A stretch of 64,000 nt of DNA, taken from an uncultured Gammaproteobacteria bacterium (GTDB taxonomy: Bacteria; Patescibacteriota; Patescibacteriia; UBA9934). The number at the start of each line of letters is the position of its first letter. The stretch's first letter is position 1. Positions 3,217 through 64,000 of this stretch are shown here, one piece after another. The notes beneath the pieces are model-generated. The model made no database searches, was not told the DNA's origin, and was given only the letters and a program-made list of their open reading frames with translations. The position numbers were made by a program, and so were the translations under genes. The DNA is taken from NCBI GenBank assembly GCA_964344415.1, contig CAYFMS010000001.1, forward strand, positions 10,126 to 74,125. The letters are read 5' to 3'.

Positions 3217-3582
3217 ATTTTAGTTACGGATAGATGAGAAAAGTTAGAAAAGCAAGTAAAGTTAGTAAAATCGAAGAAAGAGACAAAAGAGATTTATGAG
3301 ATTGGAGAGATTCTAGTCGCAATTTGAACAGATCCTTCGACAGGCTCAGGATTTCAAATAATGTTACCCTCTTCCTGTCATTTCGACTAAGGCCGAAGGC
3401 CGCATGGAGAAATCTACTTAATGCGTAGAAGTTAAGAGGGAGAGTAAAGTTAGTAAGGTCGGAGAAAGAGACAAAAGAGATTTAGGAGATTTATTAGCTT
3501 GTAGGTTAGACTACACCCTACACCCTACTCCCTAAAACCTATACCCTAACGCAGTATACCAATTTTCTGCTAAGATACGGGC
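3217..3582. repeat. Mosaic intergenic repeat cluster A
   Basis: Two ~48 bp direct repeats at 3256..3306 and 3444..3491 (gtaaagttagtaa..tcg.agaaagagacaaaagagattta.gagatt). It shares module M3 (gagattggagagattctagtcgcaa) with 26955..26995 and module M4 (agatccttcgacaggctcaggatttc) with 8272..8300 and 26993..27020. A poly-pyrimidine ccctacaccctactccctaaaaccctataccc tract sits at 3505..3560. Confidence 0.7.
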
Positions 3583-8120: not shown

Positions 8121-8354
8121 GGCTGCAGTTTAGCAGAGATTTTCAATGGGGTGTAGGGGTGGAACGCCGTTACTAATTTACGGATGGTACAGATATACGG
8201 ATTTAGGTGCGAAGGAGATAAAAGAGATTTATGAGGTTGTAGGTTTTAGGTTGTAGCTTGTAGGCGTAGAAAGATCCTTCGACAGGCTCAGGATTTCGAA
8301 TGCGGTCGCGCAGTGAGCTTGGAAAGGTTGAACCTATTGCAGGCTCACAAGCGA
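8121..8354. repeat. Mosaic intergenic repeat cluster B
   Basis: Contains M2 (tacagatatacggatttaggtgcgaaggaga), M1 (gtaggttttaggttgtagcttgtagg), M4 (agatccttcgacaggctcaggatttcgaatgcggtcgcgcagtga) and a terminal hairpin cacaagcgac + T-run also seen at 13956..13972. Confidence 0.7.
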
Positions 8355-26844: not shown

Positions 26845-27310
26845 AGCAAGTCATATGCCGAGTGCAAAGTAAGTAGCTGGTAGGTTTTAGGTTGTAGCTT
26901 GTAGGGTTGCCGTTACAGATTTATGAATAGTACAGATATACGGATTTAGGTGCGAAGGAGATTTAGGAGATTGGAGAGATTCTAGTCGCAAAAAGATCCT
27001 TCGACAGGCTCAGGATTTCGATGTCCGAAACTGCCGCCACCTGTGAGACTGTCACACTGCATGCGGCAAGAGCGAGGAATTGCAAAACAGCCGATAGGAA
27101 TGAACGCATCATTGCATTAAGAAAAATAAAGACATTTCTACTCTCTGTTTTGCCTGAGCGATGACGCTTATGCATGTGACAAAGCGAGCACTGGCGGCGT
27201 TCTTTTGCTTACTTTTCTTTAAAGAAAAGTAAGAAGAAAAAACAAGAGATCTTTCCCGACTTCGCTCTGTGAGCTACGGCGGACAGGCGTATTCACTCGA
27301 GATGACGGAA
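26845..27310. repeat. Mosaic intergenic repeat cluster C
   Basis: Modules M1, M2, M3, M4 in the same order as cluster B, followed by the ~250 bp segment (27000..27250) that is the reverse complement of 13440..13690 at ~90% identity, including the aaagaaaagtaag palindrome. Confidence 0.75.
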
Positions 27311-36719: not shown

Positions 36720-37910
36720 TTATGCATGCCACTCCTTCCTTGCATGATGTATTCTCGATTCGAGTGCAGACAAATCAGGATCTATAGCTTTATGAGGGCC
36801 TCGAATCAACGAATGCACCCTTTCAATGAATGACGCGCGCTCTGGACCGAATGGAATCTGTAATTCCTGAAATATTTCATCAGAGCTGAGATTATGTTTA
36901 TGTAAAATGTCTTTAAACGCTGCCTGTTCCTGCTGTTGAATACGATCCTTTCTCACCTGTCTATGCTTTGCCATCAATAAATCTTCACTGCGCAAGAAAC
37001 TCAAAAACACATGATAGTCGCTCGAATGCTCACCATGTTCATAATGAACACTGCCGCAAACAACATCAAGGAAAAGTACGCATGCCATCAAATCCATTGC
37101 ATCGCCCGCATCAAATCCTGCGCGGTGAGCCCTGTCAATCATGACCTGCATTTTTGTAGCTGATGGATTTTGGAAGAACTCAATTGCGTCGACATGATAT
37201 TTGATCAGAAAATTCACCAATTCAATATCTCGCTCAGACAATCGAAGCCACTCACCCACTCCCCTCCTCAAATCTGCAGATTCTCTGGAACTAGAAATAG
37301 CAGCATGATTTGGGTAATGCACCTCGATTTCATATTTATCATAAAAAGCACCCATCACTTCATGTACAGCCGCATGCGGATACTTTGCATGCATTCCCCG
37401 AAATAATTTCAGAAAAAGATCACGCTCACCTGAACTCATTTTTTCATGCTTTCGATGCTTATGCTGAAAAAGGGACAATCCCGCCCCCTCACTATGACGA
37501 TGAGCTTCAAATGTGGCTGTCTCGACCTTGCCGATATCGTGCAAAAGACAAAAAGCATAAAGACTTGCTGCTTTTTCCTTCATAATGAGCTGAAGATGCA
37601 AAATGTCGTCGGCGAAATTCTTCTCTCTTTTCAATTCCTCGATTTCAAGTAGCGATACATTGTCAGAAAGGGCAAAAAGCGTCGCAAGCATCCGCTTTAC
37701 ATGATCTGAAACAATTGCCCCTTCACTATGCCAAGGAGGTGACTGAGGTACAGAATTCAATCCCTTGAGATCCGGAAATTTCTGCGCTGCAGAAAGCCAT
37801 GCATCATCCGCAGATAGAATATTCTTTTCCGTCAACACACGTTCATTCATCCAATCCAAAATAGAATATGTGAATGGAACAGATGTTTTTTTGGTTAATA
37901 ACCTGAGCAT
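36720..37910 (-). CDS. HD-domain phosphohydrolase family protein
   Basis: LLHDIGKVE with upstream His; 396 aa. Confidence 0.55.
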   Translation of the reverse strand: MLRLLTKKTSVPFTYSILDWMNERVLTEKNILSADDAWLSAAQKFPDLKGLNSVPQSPPWHSEGAIVSDHVKRMLATLFALSDNVSLLEIEELKREKNFADDILHLQLIMKEKAASLYAFCLLHDIGKVETATFEAHRHSEGAGLSLFQHKHRKHEKMSSGERDLFLKLFRGMHAKYPHAAVHEVMGAFYDKYEIEVHYPNHAAISSSRESADLRRGVGEWLRLSERDIELVNFLIKYHVDAIEFFQNPSATKMQVMIDRAHRAGFDAGDAMDLMACVLFLDVVCGSVHYEHGEHSSDYHVFLSFLRSEDLLMAKHRQVRKDRIQQQEQAAFKDILHKHNLSSDEIFQELQIPFGPERASFIERVHSLIRGPHKAIDPDLSALESRIHHARKEWHA

Positions 37911-37934
37911 GATTTGTATTATAGCGCAGTTGAG

Positions 37935-38765
37935 CTATTCAATTTCGAGCATGCGCATCACATCATCCACAATATCCTCCCCCTCTTTCTGCCATATTCC
38001 CCAACAAGTGTCTCCGCCATATGTAAATCCCCCGAAGCGCTTCAGTAAATCAAGCGCCTTGTCTGTTTCCTGCACATATAAAATATGCCCCTGCTTCAAA
38101 AGCAGAGTTGTTGGCTTGCCAAAATGATGCGCCATTTCAAATGAAAGAGCATCGCGAATTCCAATCTCTGGATTTGCATTCTCGACAAAGACAAAATTGC
38201 CCCTCCCCTCTCTTTCGGCAAATGCTTTTTTCGCCTGCGCCTCTTCCTCTTTTCTCTTATCTCCCCCAAGCTCGAGCAGTAATGCATGATAATAATCCAG
38301 CCCCCGTTTTTCATCTTCTGGATTCAAATTCATTTCCTTTACCGCCCAGACAAATCCTCTGTCCATTGCTGCCACTATTTGAATCATGAGAGAATCAAAT
38401 CCATGTTTTTCAAGTTCTTCATTTGAGATTTCGAAATAAGCAAGAAATTGCTCAAGAGAACTTATGTCATTTGTTCGGTCGAGCTCACCGTATCGGTGAT
38501 GGTCAATGATGACCACTTTTAATCCTTGATCTTCGAGCTCTTTTTCTGTTTTTGGATCTGGGATTTCGATAATGACAATTCTGTCAGCATCTGGATTTAC
38601 TTCTTTTGCGCGAGCAATGAGATTCTCTTCCTTGTCGAGCTTCGCTCCATGCGGCTGATTTGAAATAAGCGTCGGGATTTTTAATTTCTCGGCGATTGCC
38701 CTAATCGTAAGCGATTCAGGATCATTAATAGGTATCAGAAGTACAATTGTATCGGTAGAAATCAT
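37935..38765 (-). CDS. DHH-family phosphoesterase-like protein
   Basis: VIIDHH motif; start moved to MISTDT (38765) because the upstream extension runs into a terminator. Confidence 0.4.
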   Translation of the reverse strand: MISTDTIVLLIPINDPESLTIRAIAEKLKIPTLISNQPHGAKLDKEENLIARAKEVNPDADRIVIIEIPDPKTEKELEDQGLKVVIIDHHRYGELDRTNDISSLEQFLAYFEISNEELEKHGFDSLMIQIVAAMDRGFVWAVKEMNLNPEDEKRGLDYYHALLLELGGDKRKEEEAQAKKAFAEREGRGNFVFVENANPEIGIRDALSFEMAHHFGKPTTLLLKQGHILYVQETDKALDLLKRFGGFTYGGDTCWGIWQKEGEDIVDDVMRMLEIE

Positions 38766-38796
38766 ATACGCTATTGTACCCGAGGATGATATTTGC

Positions 38797-38833
38797 AAAA
38801 AGAAAAAGCCCCGCCGCATTGCAGCGACAGGGC
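38797..38833 (-). terminator. Strong rho-independent terminator closing the GC-rich cassette
   Basis: Minus strand gccctgtcgc-tgcaat-gcggcggggc (10 bp stem) followed by TTTTTCTTTTT. Confidence 0.8.
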
Positions 38834-39206
38834 TTGACGTGATCGTTTGGCGCGACCCTAACGAGGTGATCGACCCCCGACAGCCATTATGTATCCACGC
38901 GCCCTAGGCTATATGAGGCGCGCTTCTAAACTACATCATTTCATCTCACTTCTGAGTTTCAATCTGCTCCGTACCCTGATTCCTTCCCGAGGGAACGTGG
39001 AAGGGGGCTGCATTATCTGTTTGCGATTTAAGTTCTTGGATGTTCAGATGGCACACCCAGAACCGAGGATTTCTTTTTGGCGCGTGATACCTACGCATTG
39101 GTTTCGAGCATTTCTACTCCTTTTTCTCTCAGCAAGTTTGATTAATCAAACTCGCAGTTGAGTGGCCGACCCGTGGATTTCTCCAGGGTCGGCCCGTTGG
39201 TACGGA
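38834..39206 (-). other. GC-rich structured non-coding tail (~370 nt) of the 39207..39773 transcript
   Basis: No plausible ORF on either strand; several strong hairpins (ggccgaccc...gggtcggcc, gcgcgcc...ggcgcgu); GC well above the genome background. Confidence 0.5.
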
Positions 39207-39773
39207 TCACTGACCAGGATCGAAGTTGAACTCGTACTCGTACAAGACGTCCCCGATTCGATCCCATGCATCGCCCTGCCTGACACAGCAGTGCAAGAGA
39301 GCGGCGATCTTTTTGCCAAGACCAGGGACTTCAGGGTTGTACCCGCCATGCATCTTGGCATCACGATCCTCGAGAAGCTCCTCGATGCGCTCGTAGCGCT
39401 CGTCGGAGGTCATGCCGTTCCAGTTCTCACGCCTCTTGGGCTGAGAGCAGGAATTGACATGCCTCATTACCTTCTCGATCTCAGCAGGATTCATCCCCCC
39501 GCGGTACCCGATTTCCTGCTGGAAGGCGGAGGCGGCTTCCCTCGCAACAACGAAAGCTCTCAGTGCCTTCAGACGATCTTCCAAGGTCTTGATGAACTTT
39601 TCGACAGCCTCTGCTCTGAATTTCCCTCGCCAATCTGCCGCCCGCTTCAGGCGGCGACTCTCGTTCACGAGCTCGAGCAGTCGCTCCAGGTCTTCGACGC
39701 GGCGATTCTTCGCCCCGTGGAACCCGCCACCGATCACCTTATCGCGCACTAGTCGCAAATTCTGCTTTCCCAT
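39207..39773 (-). CDS. Orphan hypothetical protein in a GC-rich cassette (188 aa)
   Basis: SD GGAGG 5 nt upstream; helical charged protein, no recognised motif; preferred over the antisense ORF 39162..39752 on composition and RBS grounds. Confidence 0.5.
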   Translation of the reverse strand: MGKQNLRLVRDKVIGGGFHGAKNRRVEDLERLLELVNESRRLKRAADWRGKFRAEAVEKFIKTLEDRLKALRAFVVAREAASAFQQEIGYRGGMNPAEIEKVMRHVNSCSQPKRRENWNGMTSDERYERIEELLEDRDAKMHGGYNPEVPGLGKKIAALLHCCVRQGDAWDRIGDVLYEYEFNFDPGQ

Positions 39774-52965: not shown

Positions 52966-53637
52966 ATGAAACGATATTTTCTCTTTCTTGCTCTGCCCCT
53001 TCTTGGAATGGGCTGCACCGTTGGAACATCCGATGTGACATATACCGATATTGAGACAGATGAGTCGACGGAAGTAACTGAACAAATTCGTGATGCACAG
53101 GTTTTTGAATATTCCCTTCTATCAGACTGGGATAATGCCTATCAAGCAACGCGATCAATTCGTGAATTAACACCGAATCAAATTATCGCATTTGGAATTA
53201 TTGATTCGCCGTATGAAGAACATATTTCTTATTTCGCTGCGAATGCCGTGACCGACCAGGACAGTATTCTTGCTAGCGTATACCGATACGATAATAGTAA
53301 TTACAATTTTGAACGAATATACAGGGAGGAATTTGAAAAAGGAGAGCAGGCCTACACGACAAGCACTGACCCAGCAGCACTCGAGGAATTTCATGTAATT
53401 GGAATTGATGGCGAAAAACTGATTGTATTAGTTACACAAAAAGATAAGCAGCTTGACCAATGTGAATCAGCGCTTGTTTATGCGAGTACATTCCAAATAG
53501 AAGACGATCAGGGGCAACTCATTTCAATGGAACTCGATGACCCTTATGGAACAGTAGAGAAATATCACCCATCCGGTTCCATATTGCAGATTGGCTGGGA
53601 TTGGCAAGAAGAATGTGAAAGTCTTCTCGATAGATAA
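52966..53637 (+). CDS. Lipoprotein, unknown function
   Basis: Signal plus lipobox LLGMGC. Confidence 0.5.
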   Translation: MKRYFLFLALPLLGMGCTVGTSDVTYTDIETDESTEVTEQIRDAQVFEYSLLSDWDNAYQATRSIRELTPNQIIAFGIIDSPYEEHISYFAANAVTDQDSILASVYRYDNSNYNFERIYREEFEKGEQAYTTSTDPAALEEFHVIGIDGEKLIVLVTQKDKQLDQCESALVYASTFQIEDDQGQLISMELDDPYGTVEKYHPSGSILQIGWDWQEECESLLDR

Positions 53638-55590: not shown

Positions 55591-56100
55591 TCACAACTCA
55601 ACTACATCGCAATTCGCAATATTCAAACTCCCCTTGAAGAGAACTTGCGGGAGTGGATGTAGAATATCGACATCTTCAGCAGATGCATAACGCGTATAGT
55701 AATCAATAATCGCAGGTGAGAGCTTGCGATATTGTTTTATTACTTCCGAATCAAAGGCAGTGAAATTTGCCGGATGATACCAATTATCACCCTTTTTACC
55801 ATGAAAAATAATTGCCTTACTCTGACGAATGGACCCAGGATGAATCTTCCAAAATGCTACGCTTTTCTTTATGCCTATTTTATTTAAGACGCTGCGAATT
55901 TCTTCAGGATGCGCCATAATAAAGTGTAGCGTATCACTCCATCTTGCATTCACATATGGAATAATTTCCCTATCTCTGTATCGCTTATCTTCCCTCTTCT
56001 GCCGCTTATGTCGGTATAATTCAGGAAAATGAAACTTGAGCCTGCTAACCGGATGTAGAATATCTCCCTTCATTTCTTTTGGAATAATATGATACAGCAT
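55591..56100 (-). CDS. Hypothetical protein
   Basis: 169 aa, no motif recognised. Confidence 0.4.
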   Translation of the reverse strand: MLYHIIPKEMKGDILHPVSRLKFHFPELYRHKRQKREDKRYRDREIIPYVNARWSDTLHFIMAHPEEIRSVLNKIGIKKSVAFWKIHPGSIRQSKAIIFHGKKGDNWYHPANFTAFDSEVIKQYRKLSPAIIDYYTRYASAEDVDILHPLPQVLFKGSLNIANCDVVEL

Positions 56101-56192
56101 ATCTACATCTTATCCATAAACAAAAAACCACCGCAAGTAGCGATGGTGAGTGCGGGCATTACTGCCAGAAAGTTCGCGAGGGCGATTCAGGT

Positions 56193-56420
56193 TCACTCCT
56201 TCGGCGTGACTCGTTCAGCAAGAAGTCTTTTCCTCCTTTTTGGTGCCGCGTCTTGTGGCAATTCGTTGCGTTTGCGGTCGACTGCAACGAAATACCGTTG
56301 GACGGAGGCTGGCAACTTCACTCCTTTCCAGAATTCCTCAACGGCCTTCTCTGCACGCTTGGCAGCCTCAGCGTCCAGCGACCCAGTCAGTTTCTCCGAA
56401 CGTACGCCACGGTTGAACAT
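56193..56420 (-). CDS. Small basic protein (~75 aa) within the tRNA-Ala-linked islet
   Basis: Strong SD GGAGGAG 4 nt before ATG (MFNRGVRSEKL...); the ORF-track N-terminal extension was rejected. Confidence 0.45.
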   Translation of the reverse strand: MFNRGVRSEKLTGSLDAEAAKRAEKAVEEFWKGVKLPASVQRYFVAVDRKRNELPQDAAPKRRKRLLAERVTPKE

Positions 56421-56465
56421 AGCTCTCCTCCTTTTTCTTGGTGTGGACACTCTGAGCTCATCGTA

Positions 56466-56693
56466 TCAGACGTCAACCCCCTTGTCATCTTCAGAAATCT
56501 TGCGACAATCGAACAGACTTGTGCCTAAAACAGTCCAAGCAAAAATCTGTACGACAATTATGAAAACGATCATCTGTATGACGGCGCTGATAAGCCCCAT
56601 GAAGACTACGAGGCAAAATTTTAGTATCATTAGCTCCCCCACATCAATCCAGAAGCAATAACCGATGTGGAGATCCAATAATTGGCTGTACAA
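56466..56693 (-). CDS. Small two-TM membrane protein in the islet
   Basis: 75 aa hydrophobic protein. Confidence 0.35.
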   Translation of the reverse strand: MYSQLLDLHIGYCFWIDVGELMILKFCLVVFMGLISAVIQMIVFIIVVQIFAWTVLGTSLFDCRKISEDDKGVDV

Positions 56694-56736
56694 GTTAGCC
56701 AGAAGGTTACGAACGCAGTCACGTCGGCTCGCTGAT

Positions 56737-57396
56737 CTATAATCTACTTTCCCACGAAGAAAAATCTTCGCTTACCGTTACTAGGTGATCTGCTATTTTG
56801 GTTGCATTTGCAATCTCGGCAGCGTCCTGCACGACCCATCCCCCTTGAATTAGACCTGTCTCGTCATAGTCATGCACCAACATACCATAGTCGTCGAACA
56901 GCAAAAAGTCGCGAGGCGGAACTGCACTTAGCCCCCAAGGAGCTTCCGACCCGTCAAGGATACGAACCTCTTCGCCCATCTGAATGGTTGCCCTATACGC
57001 CTCGAATTCATATTTCAAATAGTCAGATATCGGCCGATTTACTGGGCGAACTCGAACAATTTGCACGCCACGCGCCGTTGCTGTATTGAGAAGTTCAGCT
57101 TGCGTCAGGACCCGCTCGCGCAGTAAGCGAGAAGCTTCGTCGAAGTCCCCCTGCACTAATGCTTCGTAGCTAGGATCACCTGGCTCACGGTACGACTGCC
57201 AAGATTCCCACTTGAAGAAACGCGATCGCAAATCATGCCAAAGCTCCCTAAAATGGGTAAAGAAAGCATCGACATCATGGTAAGTGCCGTTCGGTGGTTG
57301 TGCAATCATAGAGTGATCTACTGTTACTCGGTAGGGATCGGTTCCAATGCGGCGTTTGAACATGATTTTCATGATTTCTCCAGGACCTACTTGCAA
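56737..57396 (-). CDS. Hypothetical protein in the islet (GC ~52%)
   Basis: 219 aa with normal composition. Confidence 0.45.
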   Translation of the reverse strand: MQVGPGEIMKIMFKRRIGTDPYRVTVDHSMIAQPPNGTYHDVDAFFTHFRELWHDLRSRFFKWESWQSYREPGDPSYEALVQGDFDEASRLLRERVLTQAELLNTATARGVQIVRVRPVNRPISDYLKYEFEAYRATIQMGEEVRILDGSEAPWGLSAVPPRDFLLFDDYGMLVHDYDETGLIQGGWVVQDAAEIANATKIADHLVTVSEDFSSWESRL

Positions 57397-57522
57397 TGTG
57401 ACTTATTAACATCAACCTGTCAAACTCATCATTCAGTACGTTGATAACCAACCACCAACAGTGAGTCTCTTATCCGTGCGCAAAAAACACCGTTTGAAAT
57501 GCAAAACAAAACCACCACCCAT

Positions 57523-57756
57523 TTAATGATGAGTGGTGAGATAACGGCTCACATATTCAAGCTTGCGTATCGCCGCTCGTACAAGTGCATCGACTCTGCG
57601 GCTGAGCGACTTGTTGGACATGGTCCTTACCGGAGCGTGCATAGGTACGAAGACACTGCGATCTCGAAAATGCAACACTCCTGCATATATCTCATCAAGC
57701 TCCGAGAGCATCCTGATGCACTCTTCCGATTCATTCTCCTGACTCAACGTTGACAT
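57523..57756 (-). CDS. Small hypothetical protein in the islet
   Basis: 77 aa. Confidence 0.35.
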   Translation of the reverse strand: MSTLSQENESEECIRMLSELDEIYAGVLHFRDRSVFVPMHAPVRTMSNKSLSRRVDALVRAAIRKLEYVSRYLTTHH

Positions 57757-57850
57757 GGATCTACTCCTCCATTCATGTGATTAACCGTCTAATCACTCAA
57801 CCTAAAATAATACTAACATAAGCGCAACAAAAAACCACCGCAAGTAGCGA

Positions 57851-57927
57851 TGGATTTTTGGTGGACCCTACCGGAGTCGAACCGGTGACCTCCTCGGTGC
57901 AAACGAGGCGCTCTAGCCAGCTGAGCT
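57851..57927 (-). tRNA. tRNA-Ala (anticodon TGC)
   Basis: 77 nt: acceptor GGGCCCT/AGGGTCC with the G3:U70 Ala identity pair, anticodon loop ttTGCac, T-arm GGTTCGACTCC, encoded CCA. Confidence 0.9.
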
Positions 57928-58112
57928 AAGGGCCCATGCGACACTCACATATCTTTTTTCTCCACCTACTTTGTCGATCATCTCCGCTGCTCAATGAATC
58001 TCCTCGTATGTGACGAAAAATCTTATGTTCATGAATCTCGTCAAACAAGATGGTGGCGAAATAGTACCTTTTTGATCCCCATATGTCAAGACGAGTATGA
58101 TAATATAAATCT

Positions 58113-59498
58113 ATGAAGTGGGGGATTTTTTTACTTCTCTTTTTGCTGACAATGCCAGCAACCGCTCTTGCAGCCGACTCGACACATGTACCGGTTGAAT
58201 TTAGGATTCACACAAATACTGGAAAAACACTTTCAAGCTTTTACCCATTCGGAAAGTCCTATGCTGGCCGCGTCGATTTCGATATCCAAGACATGAATCA
58301 AGACGGCATTGATGAAATTATTATCGGTGGCGGGATGAACCTTGAACCCTCTGTTAAAATCTTGAATCAAAATGGGGATATTCTTTCTGAATTTATCGCC
58401 TATCACCCGCTTTACCGGTCGGGAGTCAATGTAACAACATGCGATATCGACAATGACGGCGATCAAGACATTGTTACTGGAACATTTCCCGGCGGAGGGC
58501 CACATGTACAGACCTTCTCGCAATCGGGAGAACCACTTTATGGAGGATTCTTCGCATATGGCGAGAACTTTCGTGGCGGTGTCGATGTAACATGCGCTGA
58601 CATTGATAGAGATGGTCGCGCAGATATTGTGACGGCACCTGGCATTAGTGGAGGGCCTCACATTAAAGTCTTTTCTCCAGAGGGAGAGCTGAAATACGAA
58701 GTTTTTGCTGGCGAAATTTATGATAATGCCGGCGCAACCGTCATGACAGAAGACATAGACAATGACGGACGTATTGAAATCATCACCGGAAGTATGGGCG
58801 GAAGTAATTCCCTAATACGCATATTTGAATTCGATACGTATACACAGCGCATTGCGCCTCAATCTGAATTTGATTCTGGAATTATTACCACCGACGGTAT
58901 TGAACTCGGGATCACAGAAGCAAAGAATAATGCTCTTCTGCTCACCGTATCCCCTTCGAATGCCCCCTCCCCTGAAATACATTTATATGACATCTCGGGC
59001 AAGAAGGTGACTCAATTCGACCTCTTCAAAACAGAAAATCACGGAGCTAAAACAACACGAATTAGAACAGAAAATGGCATTCATCAAATATCTGCATCGA
59101 ATTCAGGCATTCATCGTAATCGCGTCGGAAAAAACATTATTGTCGATGTCGGTGAACAGGCACTCTATACATTTGAACATGGAGCTTTCGTGAATTCATT
59201 CCTAGTGTCGACTGGCTTGCAGGAATTTGAGACTCCGCGGGGTGAATTTTCCGTAACACATAAGCTTCCAAAACATGATTACAGATGGGTATATGGTGAA
59301 AATGATCCCCGTAATTATGACCTTCCAAATGTAAAATGGAATTTGCGATTTAAGAAATACTTTTATATTCATTCAGCACCTTGGCATAATAATTTTGGCC
59401 GGCGCATGAGCCATGGCTGCGTTAATGTGCGAGAAGATAATGCTGAATGGATTTTCCATTGGGCTGACGTGGACACGCCCGTTGAGATTATCGATTGA
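58113..59498 (+). CDS. Secreted FG-GAP/VCBS-repeat protein with C-terminal L,D-transpeptidase (YkuD) domain
   Basis: Signal peptide; repeats CDIDNDGDQDIVTG, CADIDRDGRADIVTA, TEDIDNDGRIEIITG; catalytic HSAPWHNNFGRRMSHGCVNV. Confidence 0.75.
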   Translation: MKWGIFLLLFLLTMPATALAADSTHVPVEFRIHTNTGKTLSSFYPFGKSYAGRVDFDIQDMNQDGIDEIIIGGGMNLEPSVKILNQNGDILSEFIAYHPLYRSGVNVTTCDIDNDGDQDIVTGTFPGGGPHVQTFSQSGEPLYGGFFAYGENFRGGVDVTCADIDRDGRADIVTAPGISGGPHIKVFSPEGELKYEVFAGEIYDNAGATVMTEDIDNDGRIEIITGSMGGSNSLIRIFEFDTYTQRIAPQSEFDSGIITTDGIELGITEAKNNALLLTVSPSNAPSPEIHLYDISGKKVTQFDLFKTENHGAKTTRIRTENGIHQISASNSGIHRNRVGKNIIVDVGEQALYTFEHGAFVNSFLVSTGLQEFETPRGEFSVTHKLPKHDYRWVYGENDPRNYDLPNVKWNLRFKKYFYIHSAPWHNNFGRRMSHGCVNVREDNAEWIFHWADVDTPVEIID

Positions 59499-60865: not shown

Positions 60866-60975
60866 TTCCGGCGCCCACCTACTCTCGCCATTCTTGACTA
60901 CCATCGGCCCTTAAGGCTTAACTGCCGTGTTCGGGATGGGAACGGGTGTGACCCTCAAGGAAATGGCACCGAAAC
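60866..60975 (-). rRNA. rrf: 5S rRNA
   Basis: Minus strand GGTCACACCCGTTCCCATCCCGAACACGGCAGTTAAGCC...GCCGATGGTAGT core of 5S. Confidence 0.85.
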
Positions 60976-61169
60976 ATTACTGACTTTTTTCTGATCTACT
61001 AAATATCAATTATACGAGGCAAATATTCCTCTTCTCATTTATCGAGAAAAGTGAGTGGAGAGCTGGACAATTAGTACTACTCAGCTGAACACGTTACCGT
61101 GCTTACACTTGTAGCCTATCAACCAGATAGTCTCTCTGGAGTCTCATAACGAAGATTAATCTTGGAATC

Positions 61170-61202
<33 letters not shown>

Positions 61203-61325
61203 GAACCGAATGTCGCTACCCAGCAATGCCCTTGGCAGGACAACTGGTACACGAGAGATTCGTTCACCCCGGTCCTCTCGTACTAGGGGCGAGTTTCCTC
61301 AATCTTCAACGCGCGCAGCGGATAG

Positions 61326-61444
<119 letters not shown>

Positions 61445-61983
61445 GAACCTCCCCGTCGCTGTGGACGCTTGGGGGAGACCAGCCTGTTATCCCCGGAGTA
61501 GCTTTTATCCGTTGAGCTTCCGCCGTCCTATATCGAACGGTCGGATCACTAGCTTCTGCTTTCGCAACTGCTCGACATGTCAGTCTTGCAGTAAAGCTGG
61601 CTTATGCGCTTGCACGTCCAGCCCGATTTCCATCCGGGCTAAGCCAACCTTTGTAAACGCCTCCGTTACTTTTTGGGAGGCTACCGCCCCAGTCAAACTA
61701 CCCATCAGATACTGTTCCCGCTGCCGGATTCACGGCTGCAGGTTAGGATTCACATAGTACAAGGGTGGTATCTCACTGATGCCAAGGCTCCCACCTATAC
61801 TGAACATGTAAAACATGAACCCAATATCAAACTGTAGTAAAGCTTCACGGGGTCTTTTCGTCCGGCTGCGCGTAATGAGCATCTTCACTCATATCGCAAT
61901 TTCGCCGAGTACATCGTTGGGACAGTTTGGAAATCGTTATGCCATTCGTGCAGGTCGGAACTCACCCGACAAGGAATTTCGCT

Positions 61984-62710
61984 CATTCTGTTACTTTGTT
62001 ACCTTATTGAGCTGGTAACGGACCAAGCTGAGCTTGGCGGTTCGTCGCGAAACGAACTCTACATGTCGCCATGCAGGTCGGACTATATCTTCATCATAAT
62101 GATGTTTGGCATATAGTCTCTGAGGATTCCAGAAATCTAGATGGAACTTTACGATTCATTCTTTGGATGATTTTCGCGATTTTTATCATTCCAGTCTTTT
62201 CAAGATGCATTCCTTCTTCCATTAAATGGAGGATAGAAACAAAGTTCTCGTAATCAGCTTTTTTGGCTGTCTTTAGAGAATATCTTTCAAAAAAGGGTAT
62301 GATTTTCTGAATAAGATCTTTTCGAGATCTTACACAGTATCGCAACAAATTTTCCTTATGATTATCACGACGGCGATTTTGATAAATCGATCCACACTTG
62401 AAATAATCCTTGATTATTTCGAGTGATTCACGACTCTTTTCACCTTGCGTGACAACAAATTCAGGAAAAATTTGCCATCCGGAACTCGTCGTTTTATTGC
62501 GGATAATACTGACCGAGAAGCAACCTTCTCCGTCAACGAATCCACAAATCCATCCAGCTAATTCTGGCCTTTCCTGCTGATTGTCTGGCTTCCTTTCGGA
62601 AACACCTCGTGGATTTTTACTGGGCATACTATGTGTATAGTTTACCCTAGTACCCGAGGATACTCCAGATGTTCCAGCATATAGCCAAATTTTACTAAGG
62701 CAGCTATTCC
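61984..62710 (-). mobile_element. Group I intron in 23S rRNA (inserted after ...CCTAAGGT, E. coli ~1917 region) carrying a LAGLIDADG homing endonuclease
   Basis: Exon continuity ...GGTCCTAAGGT | intron | AGCGAAATTCCTTGTCGGGT...; the intron ends in G. Confidence 0.8.
62094..62627 (-). CDS. LAGLIDADG homing endonuclease (intron-encoded)
   Basis: LAGWICGFVDGEGCFSV motif; 177 aa, single-motif (homodimeric) type. Confidence 0.8.
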   Translation of the reverse strand: MPSKNPRGVSERKPDNQQERPELAGWICGFVDGEGCFSVSIIRNKTTSSGWQIFPEFVVTQGEKSRESLEIIKDYFKCGSIYQNRRRDNHKENLLRYCVRSRKDLIQKIIPFFERYSLKTAKKADYENFVSILHLMEEGMHLEKTGMIKIAKIIQRMNRKVPSRFLESSETICQTSL

Positions 62711-64000
62711 ACCTTAGGACCGTTATAGTTACGGCCGGCGTTCATCCGCGCTTCGGTCGCAAGCTTCTCTACCGAAGTAGATAACCCGCTTCCTTAACGT
62801 TCGGACACTGGCCAGGCATCAGCCCCTATACATCACCTTACGGTTTAGCAGGGACCTGTGTTTTTGATAAACAGTCGCTTCCAATCCTTAGCTGTGGGTC
62901 TTCTTCTCCCGAAGAAAACCAGGCCTTATCCCGAAGTTACGGCCGCTGTTTTGCCGAGTTCCCTAACGATGTTTCTCTCGTACGCCTTAGTGCTTTAACA
63001 CCCACCTACCTGTGTTGGATTTGGTACGGGCACATAATATCTAATCTTAGAGGCTTTTCTTGGCCCACTTTCCTTTCCTCTCCCTGCACAAAGTGCAAGT
63101 CGCGCTGACCCAGAGTCTGATGACCGGCGGATTTGCCTACCAGTCGACCCCAAGCCCCCAATGTCATAGCCATAGGACACAGGAAATTCAAGCAAGCGTC
63201 CCCTCATCGAAATATTACGTGGTGCAGGAATATTAACCTGCTGTGCATCGGCTACGCCTTTCGGCCTCGTCTTAGCTCCCGACTAACCCACAGACGATTT
63301 ACGTTGCTGTGGAAACCTTAGGTTTTCGGCGGACAGGGTTCTCACCTGTCTTTTTGCTACTCATGCCAACATTCTCTCTTCCCATCGCTCCACCATGCCT
63401 CACGACATGACTTCAGCGCCATGGAAATGCTCTCCTACCGCCCAAAGATTCCGGAGAATCAATGGACCCATAGCTTCGGTGTACTACTTAGCCCCGGTAC
63501 ATTTTCGGTACAAGAAAACTTGACCAGTGAGCTGTTACGCTTTCTTTAAAGGATGGCTGCTTCCAAGCCAACCTCCTGGTTGTATGAGTCTTCTCACCAC
63601 CTTTTACACTTAGTAGTAACTTTGGGACCTTAGCTTATGATCTGGGCTGTTTCCCTTTCGACTAATGGAGCTTCGCCCCCATAGTCTGACTGCCAGGAAC
63701 ACATTGTAGTATTCGGAGTTTGGCTCGGTAGGCTACCCGAAGGCGCCGAACCGAATCAGTGCTCTACCCCCACAATGCTATTAACTGACGCTATGCCTAA
63801 ACATATCTCGGAGAGAACCAGCTATTACCGAACTCGATTGGAATTTCTCCGCTAACCACAGCTCATCCAAGCGTTTTGCACCACGCGGTGGTTCGGGCCT
63901 CCACATGCTTTTACACATGCTTCACCCTGGCCATGGTTAGGTCGTCCGGTTTCGGGTCCTATATGAGCGACAAACGCCCGTTAAGGCTCGCTTTCACTCT

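Follow-up and report, generated by a model that had tools for sequence, protein, structure and literature searches.

Between a tRNA-Ala gene and the gene of a conserved 169-amino-acid (aa) protein, the genome of an uncultured bacterium carries an islet of about 1.7 kb that, on balance, appears to be foreign DNA inserted in the terminator of the tRNA gene, the insertion having duplicated that terminator and the insert having since become an immobile, decaying remnant. The islet lies in the window analysed here (the whole stretch of 64,000 nucleotides of contig CAYFMS010000001.1), and its limits are set by two exact copies of a 28-bp sequence, AACAAAAAACCACCGCAAGTAGCGATGG. The features that define the locus are as follows.

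55591 to 56100, minus strand: host flank, gene of a conserved 169-aa protein with no function assigned, 67% identical to that of a relative
56119 to 56146, minus strand: copy 1 (distal) of the 28-mer, the same predicted terminator as copy 2, closing the transcription unit of the islet shortly ahead of the host 169-aa gene
57826 to 57853, minus strand: copy 2 (tRNA-proximal) of the 28-mer, predicted intrinsic terminator of tRNA-Ala, CCAUCGC/GCGGUGG followed by U6, 5 nt past the CCA
57859 to 57935, minus strand: tRNA-Ala(UGC) with an encoded CCA at 57861-57859, a host gene according to ARAGORN, Rfam, and blastn
58113 to 59498, plus strand: host flank, FG-GAP/YkuD L,D-transpeptidase gene, syntenic in the relative

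The identity of the two copies, reported previously from a sequence-only reading of the same DNA, was reproduced by exact search, which found no third copy within three mismatches anywhere in the window. The chance expectation for such a pair was zero in 100 shuffles; among the direct repeats listed for the window the 28-mer is the longest perfect two-copy one, the next most similar sequence being 71% identical, and the identity between the copies breaks off sharply at either end. On the minus strand the repeat reads CCATCGC-TACTT-GCGGTGG followed by T6, which corresponds to a predicted intrinsic (rho-independent) terminator with a stem of 7-8 bp containing 5 GC pairs, a 5-nt loop, and a T-tract. 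Both copies were scored as terminator-like, and folding likewise agreed with the earlier proposal of a terminator hairpin in copy 2, for which the folding energy is -16.4 kcal/mol (z = -4.3), compared with -13.9 kcal/mol for copy 1; the stronger fold of copy 2 is due to an A-rich spacer that pairs with the U-tract as well. The position of this hairpin relative to the tRNA differs from that first described: copy 2 had been thought to include the CCA end, whereas the repeat stops at 57853, five nucleotides (AAAAT) short of the CCA, and no tRNA sequence is found inside the 28-mer. Thus the locus does not have the classic attL/attR footprint at a tRNA 3' end that had been attributed to it.

The origin of the repeat is illuminated by the one relative (records L003, L004, L005, and L014) that was recovered with the 169-aa protein, the same search for further relatives having yielded only a 31%-identical homologue from Bacillus besides this single species. 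The 23S rRNA of the relative is 94-96% identical to that of the window, its tRNA-Ala is 98.7% identical by blastn, and synteny extends to both sides of the locus, one flank containing NTP-transferase, a 197-aa gene, and YkuD and the opposite flank 2-hydroxyacid dehydrogenase and PfkB. The order of features in the relative is tRNA-Ala, an unrelated terminator (AAATTCAC...GTGGATTTTTT), a gene encoding a 183-aa protein with a signal peptide, a terminator AAAAAACCACCACCACTTGCGGTGGTTTTTTGTT, and the homologue of the 169-aa gene. The latter terminator is orthologous to copy 1, with which it agrees at 25 of 28 positions, all three differences being in the 5' arm; the 3' flanks are also alike (TAGGGCTAAGAT versus TATGGATAAGAT, sharing TA(T/G)GG(A/C)TAAGAT), and the 5' flank in the relative is an A-run resembling the AAAAT ahead of copy 2. 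Because the relative's 3' flank fits copy 1 and its 5' A-run fits copy 2, a single ancestral terminator seems to have been split and duplicated by the insertion. None of the four open reading frames (ORFs) of the islet has a counterpart in the relative, and by this comparison the islet is lineage-specific. Conversely, two genes of the relative (L003 7481-8032 and 8694-9371) have no counterpart at the locus in the window: the 183-aa signal-peptide gene, of which the window contains no homologue and which is compositionally native in the relative's genome, and a 225-aa gene that is a paralogue of the window's 223-aa protein (52966-53637). With these two extra genes in the relative, the neighbourhood looks like a local hot spot of gene-content change.

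The interior of the islet (56147-57825, 1679 bp) stands apart from its surroundings in composition. Its GC content is 48.4%, lower than the figure of about 52% given before, compared with 43.4% for the window (standard deviation 1.5% among windows of the same size), which is about three standard deviations above the mean and within the top 1%. By tetranucleotide distance (0.34 against 0.233, standard deviation 0.026), no other stretch of the window deviates as far. All four minus-strand ORFs that had been described between the repeats are present, and upstream of each is a Shine-Dalgarno (SD) motif of the GGAG type (GGAGGAG, GGAG, GGGGGAG, and AGGAGGAG); in the rest of the window, a 5-mer SD is found ahead of none of the 38 long host ORFs (at least 200 aa) and the 4-mer core ahead of only two of the 38, which suggests that the host relies on SD-independent translation initiation. 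The composition and the SD motifs that host genes lack bear out the characterisation of the islet as compositionally foreign. The GC content by codon position is also coding-like in all four ORFs, unlike that of a plus-strand 190-aa ORF (56089-56661) favoured by one gene caller, which was rejected as spurious since it crosses a terminator, has neither an SD motif nor a family match, and shows GC1<GC2<GC3. On account of their SD motifs and codon-position GC, the four ORFs look like genuine genes of an SD-using donor, and their composition has not yet shifted to host values.

56193 to 56450, minus strand: basic ORF, 75 aa from the ATG at 56420 with AGGAGGAG ahead, or 85 aa from a GTG; orphan
56466 to 56693, minus strand: hydrophobic ORF, 75 aa from a TTG or, likelier, 54 aa from the ATG at 56630 with GGGGGAG ahead; two predicted transmembrane (TM) helices
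56737 to 57372, minus strand: gene of a DUF6879 protein (Pfam), more likely starting at the ATG at 57372 (211 aa), with a fold resembling phospholipase D (PLD) predicted from an AlphaFold model
57468 to 57495, minus strand: possible degenerate third copy of the repeat, CGGTGTTTTTTGCGCACGGATAAGA, resembling, at 21 of 26 positions, the 3' half of the 28-mer together with the flank on the side of the 169-aa gene; a weak match
57512 to 57539, minus strand: predicted internal intrinsic terminator with an 11-bp stem and a U-tract, overlapping the end of the 77-aa ORF
57523 to 57756, minus strand: 77-aa ORF with a GGAGGAG SD motif, from the ORF list and a homologue search; orphan

The possible third copy is located just after the internal terminator of the 77-aa ORF. 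Its score was unmatched in 500 of 500 shuffles, yet was equalled by one of 33 other chunks of the window; on this weak evidence it may be the relic of an older junction or may be due to chance. A 19-nt inverted repeat, 84% complementary, pairs the islet edge beside copy 2 (57806-57824) with a segment within the 169-aa gene (56003-56021), probably by chance. Elsewhere in the window, a second compositional outlier (37351-39601, up to 49.5% GC, second-highest tetranucleotide distance), as GC-rich as the islet in its extent of about 37.4-39.6 kb, contains three genes (188, 276-294, and 396 aa) without Pfam matches between ileS and ruvA, and may be another foreign patch.

The largest gene of the islet had been listed as an unknown protein of 219 aa, but it encodes a clear member of the DUF6879 family (E = 2.4e-34; score 118.7 bits, with a gathering cutoff of 23.9; match covering positions 2-165 of the 167 in the profile), more likely of 211 aa. 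It retains all 24 invariant columns of the family alignment (23 excluding the start methionine). Its closest homologues are at most 42% identical and are found in unrelated contexts and on actinobacterial plasmids, DUF6879 being present on 48 plasmids of actinomycetes; none was found in phage records. In seven of seven other loci (L007, L010, L017, L018, L019, and the actinobacterial plasmids L020 and L021), DUF6879 is directly preceded by a gene for a cysteine-containing partner of 63-103 aa with the consensus MFKRRIGxDPH...GCPDIWELExGxFAxIG...CGxDERIVxIPR, and the pair is often trailed by a TM protein or an XRE/DUF5753 regulator. In the islet only the first 11-12 residues of the partner remain, MFKRRIGTDPYR, fused in frame as residues 4-15 of the DUF6879 ORF (at about 57363-57328; tblastn match at 57363-57331). 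Searches of the islet by tblastn for the third gene of the module, the body of the partner, and the relative's 183-aa gene gave no trace of any of them. Judged from these alignments, the DUF6879 module is internally deleted and a partner gene of 78 aa has been lost from it. The label "decayed" fits the islet because the DUF6879 module is without its obligate partner gene; the companion suggestion, that the islet is satellite-like, gained no support, no sign of present mobility or of satellite behaviour being found.

The AlphaFold (AF2) model of the DUF6879 protein (predicted local distance difference test 87, predicted template modelling score 0.83) indicates a PLD-like fold of the phosphodiesterase/nuclease type: the top 25 matches to the PDB by Foldseek all belong to the PLD superfamily (E = 4e-6 to 2e-3, probability 1.0, template modelling scores of about 0.45-0.49), including PLD3 5' exonuclease, Streptomyces PLD, and Zucchini, and the matches in a library of viral structures are PLD-like proteins too. 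The predicted fold, in which a conserved His closes a strand and a Gly-rich turn comes next, is shared with single-domain enzymes of the PLD (HKD) class such as PLD3, Zucchini, and Nuc, but no H-x-K-x4-D motif is apparent in the alignment and there is no similarity to them at the sequence level. The family motif is instead H-D-Y-D...GGW, with invariant H167-x-Y169 followed by G173, G177, G178, and W179 and without a lysine, and catalytic activity is uncertain because this motif is not HKD. In one of the other loci (L017, 1848-6031), the DUF6879 module is adjacent to an operon of the cyclic-oligonucleotide-based antiphage signalling system (CBASS; SAVED and SMODS genes) and a large serine recombinase, a context which hints that the family moves in defence or mobile islands.

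The three smaller ORFs gave little by comparison. No homologue of the 77-aa ORF was found among 1.84 billion representative proteins, none of the basic ORF (19 K+R versus 11 D+E) among 5.8 billion clusters, and no significant family match of the hydrophobic ORF. PHROG, Pfam, and NCBIfam offered nothing convincing for any of the three, and the defence and toxin-antitoxin profiles only two weak, sub-threshold Cas matches for islet ORFs (PADLOC, E = 0.0013 and 0.014). The suggestion that the membrane and basic proteins are addiction or phage-defence cargo thus found no backing in homologues or in PADLOC, PHROG, Pfam, or NCBIfam matches.

If the 28-mer were simply the favoured terminator of this genome, reused or homogenised by gene conversion, and the ORFs fast-evolving native accessory genes, the repeats would be uninformative as to insertion. 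Terminators of the form CCACC...GGTGG with a T-run are indeed common in the window and in the relative, another terminator of the islet resembles the 28-mer, and the search for copies was limited to 64 kb of the genome. Such an origin is nevertheless improbable, given that only two copies occur within three mismatches in those 64 kb, with nothing else there above 71% identity, that the interior is the top compositional outlier and has donor-type SD motifs absent from host genes, and that the DUF6879 family is otherwise found in unrelated bacteria and on actinobacterial plasmids. The sequence-only reading had itself named a repeat reused at many loci, together with ORFs that are core genes of relatives, as the finding that would speak against an insertion; no further 28-mer turned up in the area covered, the 64-kb window on a contig that measures 768 kb or more, nor do the ORFs belong to the core genes.

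An artefactual origin of the islet as a chimera of metagenome assembly is hardly credible. The window comes from a metagenome contig of 768 kb assembled with MEGAHIT (ERZ930061), a kind of source in which chimeras might be suspected; however, the gene-side junction was recovered in L002 (run ERR2281803) and the tRNA-side junction in L013 (ERR2281803) and L023 (ERR2281802), on contigs 99.9-100% identical to the window, three sequencing runs being represented in all. Both junctions are identical across separate runs and assemblers (L002, L013, L023, and L012), and a 28-bp repeat is far below the k of 127. Neither an empty-site contig nor a circular variant was found in the three samples.

No recombinase domain was detected in the four islet ORFs, and no integrase or transposase in the annotated genes of 29956-62100 or in 10 of the 13 ORFs of at least 250 aa in 1-30000, in keeping with the earlier observation that no integrase is present. 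There are no terminal inverted repeats at the ends of the islet, no Rfam structured RNA within it (the tRNA being the only match at the locus), and no blastn matches of the islet DNA to phages or plasmids. A 23-mer core of the 28-mer had no match in the collections of metagenome or genome contigs, and the single match of a 19-mer core among viral contigs (L016) was set aside, being in coding sequence without a T-run and at a frequency expected by chance. The same cargo, which the sequence-only reading had suggested looking for beside other tRNAs, was not found again in viral, metagenome, genome, phage, or plasmid collections. Several classes of element were considered and rejected: DDE transposons, insertion sequences, miniature inverted-repeat transposable elements, and casposons, on the grounds that inverted repeats and a transposase are absent and a 28-bp duplication far exceeds the usual target-site duplications; an integron cassette, since the 19-nt hairpin has no RYYYAAC/GTTRRRY core sites and there is no integrase among the window genes checked; and a group II intron, since no ribozyme or reverse transcriptase was found and a 28-bp duplication is present. 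A tRNA-targeting integrative element would account for exact bounding direct repeats with one copy at the native site, but the islet was not assigned to this class because there is no integrase inside the repeats and the repeat lies outside the tRNA, across the 5-nt gap.

In the history proposed here, about 1.68 kb of horizontally acquired DNA would have entered the intrinsic terminator that separates tRNA-Ala from the host gene of 169 aa, the 28-bp terminator being copied in the process. The likeliest route would be recombination of the chromosomal terminator with an identical stretch on incoming, probably circular, DNA, by a recombinase that acted in trans or was later lost; alternatively, short homology alone may have been sufficient. 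Each copy of the 28-mer would now terminate one transcription unit, the tRNA-proximal copy continuing to end that of tRNA-Ala and the distal copy ending that of the imported genes and insulating the host gene downstream. What is left would be an islet no longer mobile and in decay, consisting of a DUF6879 gene without its partner and three orphan ORFs that carry donor-type ribosome-binding sites.

Several findings weigh against this history. The repeat is outside the tRNA; neither an integrase or excisionase nor a circular form or further instance of the islet was encountered in the collections searched; and the search for copies of the 28-mer covered 64 kb, the contig being 768 kb or longer. 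The perfect identity of the 28-bp copies is a weak sign of recent insertion, because terminators are conserved (25 of 28 positions with the relative). No empty site, in which tRNA-Ala would be followed by a single 28-mer and the 169-aa gene, was found, the only relative having its 183-aa gene there, with the result that the history requires either an extra loss before the insertion or a replacement. The comparison with an insert-free relative that the sequence-only reading had called for thus came out in part: the islet is absent from the syntenic locus, but a native-looking gene, and not a clean empty site, is found in its place.

The same 183-aa gene speaks in favour of entry without any recombinase, for example by uptake and then illegitimate or homology-facilitated recombination, or by replication template switching at the hairpin, in which the islet would have replaced the ancestral gene and the duplication would be a by-product of repair. 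With a native-looking gene in the relative, one-step replacement is as parsimonious as loss followed by insertion; the islet has neither mobility genes nor terminal inverted repeats, and hairpins are hot spots of template switching. This course of events is considered rather unlikely, since an exact 28-bp duplication whose sharp edges match the terminator points more to conservative recombination between shared sequences than to illegitimate joining, and the junctions bear no microhomology scars.

It is doubtful, too, that the islet is a non-autonomous element, satellite-like or cassette-like, that is mobile to this day, using the 28-bp hairpin as its attachment (att) site and depending on a recombinase from another locus of the genome or from a helper phage or plasmid. 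Such mobility would be consistent with the perfect repeats, with the dyad symmetry of the 28-mer (as in the core sites of recombinases), with a composition and SD motifs that have not drifted and suggest recent arrival, and with the possible degenerate third copy in the islet; accretion of cargo between repeated att copies beside tRNAs is known from the tycheposons of streamlined genomes (bioRxiv 10.1101/2020.12.28.424599). On the other side, neither the islet nor a copy of the 28-mer turned up in collections of viral, metagenome, genome, phage, or plasmid sequences, the three samples contained no empty-site or circular variant, the checked genes of the 64-kb window include no recombinase, and the cargo is already truncated. 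By a further elaboration, to which only a slim chance is given, the islet would be a cassette that carries only cargo and belongs to an undescribed integration system of an ultra-small genome: the whole terminator hairpin beside the tRNA would serve as att and be duplicated on entry, both tRNA and cargo would still be terminated, the recombinase would be located elsewhere in the genome or in a helper, and the degenerate third copy would mark successive insertions.

Taken as an insertion that has lost its mobility, the islet is by analogy most like a degenerate tRNA-adjacent genomic islet, such as the remnants in the tycheposon islands of Prochlorococcus (bioRxiv 10.1101/2020.12.28.424599). Like remnants of tyrosine-integrase elements, it has foreign cargo beside a tRNA and perfect direct repeats, one of them at the native site, but no functional mobility module, and it shares with tycheposon-type remnants an apparently small, streamlined host genome. 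It differs from tRNA-adjacent islets in that the repeat is a terminator hairpin 5 nt beyond the tRNA and not a part of the tRNA, in the lack of an integrase fragment, in its size of only 1.7 kb, and in that no empty site or second instance is known here; the classic arrangement, an attB at a tRNA 3' end with att overlapping the tRNA, is found in phage YA3 (PMC7326022). The insertion at an intrinsic terminator without disruption of a gene is also reminiscent of other systems. Tn7 (at the glmS terminator) and the bacterial group II introns of class C insert at intrinsic terminators downstream of conserved genes and thereby spare the genes. Tn7, however, has 5-bp duplications, terminal repeats, and Tns genes, none of which is found in the islet, and the islet lacks both the ribozyme and the reverse transcriptase of group II introns, which moreover make no duplication. 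With the two- or three-gene DUF6879 modules that are common on actinobacterial plasmids (cysteine-containing partner, DUF6879, and XRE/DUF5753 or TM protein), the islet has in common a full-length domain match, but the partner is cut to about 12 codons, there is no regulator or third gene, and the host is a non-actinomycete with a small genome. The duplication of a whole terminator hairpin is a modest twist on known tRNA-adjacent islets; the islet is otherwise familiar and fairly ordinary.

Other features of the window were noted in passing. The 169-aa protein downstream of the islet belongs to a very rare family (two clusters among 5.8 billion, plus the 31%-identical Bacillus homologue) and has no Pfam match. 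On the other side of the islet, beyond the L,D-transpeptidase gene, are a 5S rRNA (60866-60973) and a 23S rRNA gene (61051-64000, minus strand) that is cut by the end of the window; an AT-rich patch within the latter bears an ORF for a 177-aa LAGLIDADG homing endonuclease (62094-62627, minus strand) and is an intron-like insertion. Dispersed repeats of about 45-77 nt, 64-94% identical, are found at 3232-3504, 8166-8299, and 26875-27021 (e.g., GCCGTTAC..GATTTAGGTGCGAAGGAGAT and AAAGATCCTTCGACAGGCTCAGGATTTCGA). The host genome appears to be very small, judging by the 768-kb contig, the LAGLIDADG ORF in the 23S rRNA, and the scarcity of SD motifs ahead of its genes, and the organism may be CPR-like.

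The mechanism of mobility put forward here is a proposal, and the islet leaves current understanding unchanged. If the favoured reading is true, the islet records horizontal transfer into a very small genome poor in mobile elements, and it would mean that the terminator hairpin next to a tRNA, as opposed to the tRNA itself, can be a landing site without cost to the neighbouring genes. For the DUF6879 family, the analysis adds a predicted PLD-like fold and an obligate small partner gene, by virtue of which the pair may be tested as a phosphodiesterase or nuclease module.

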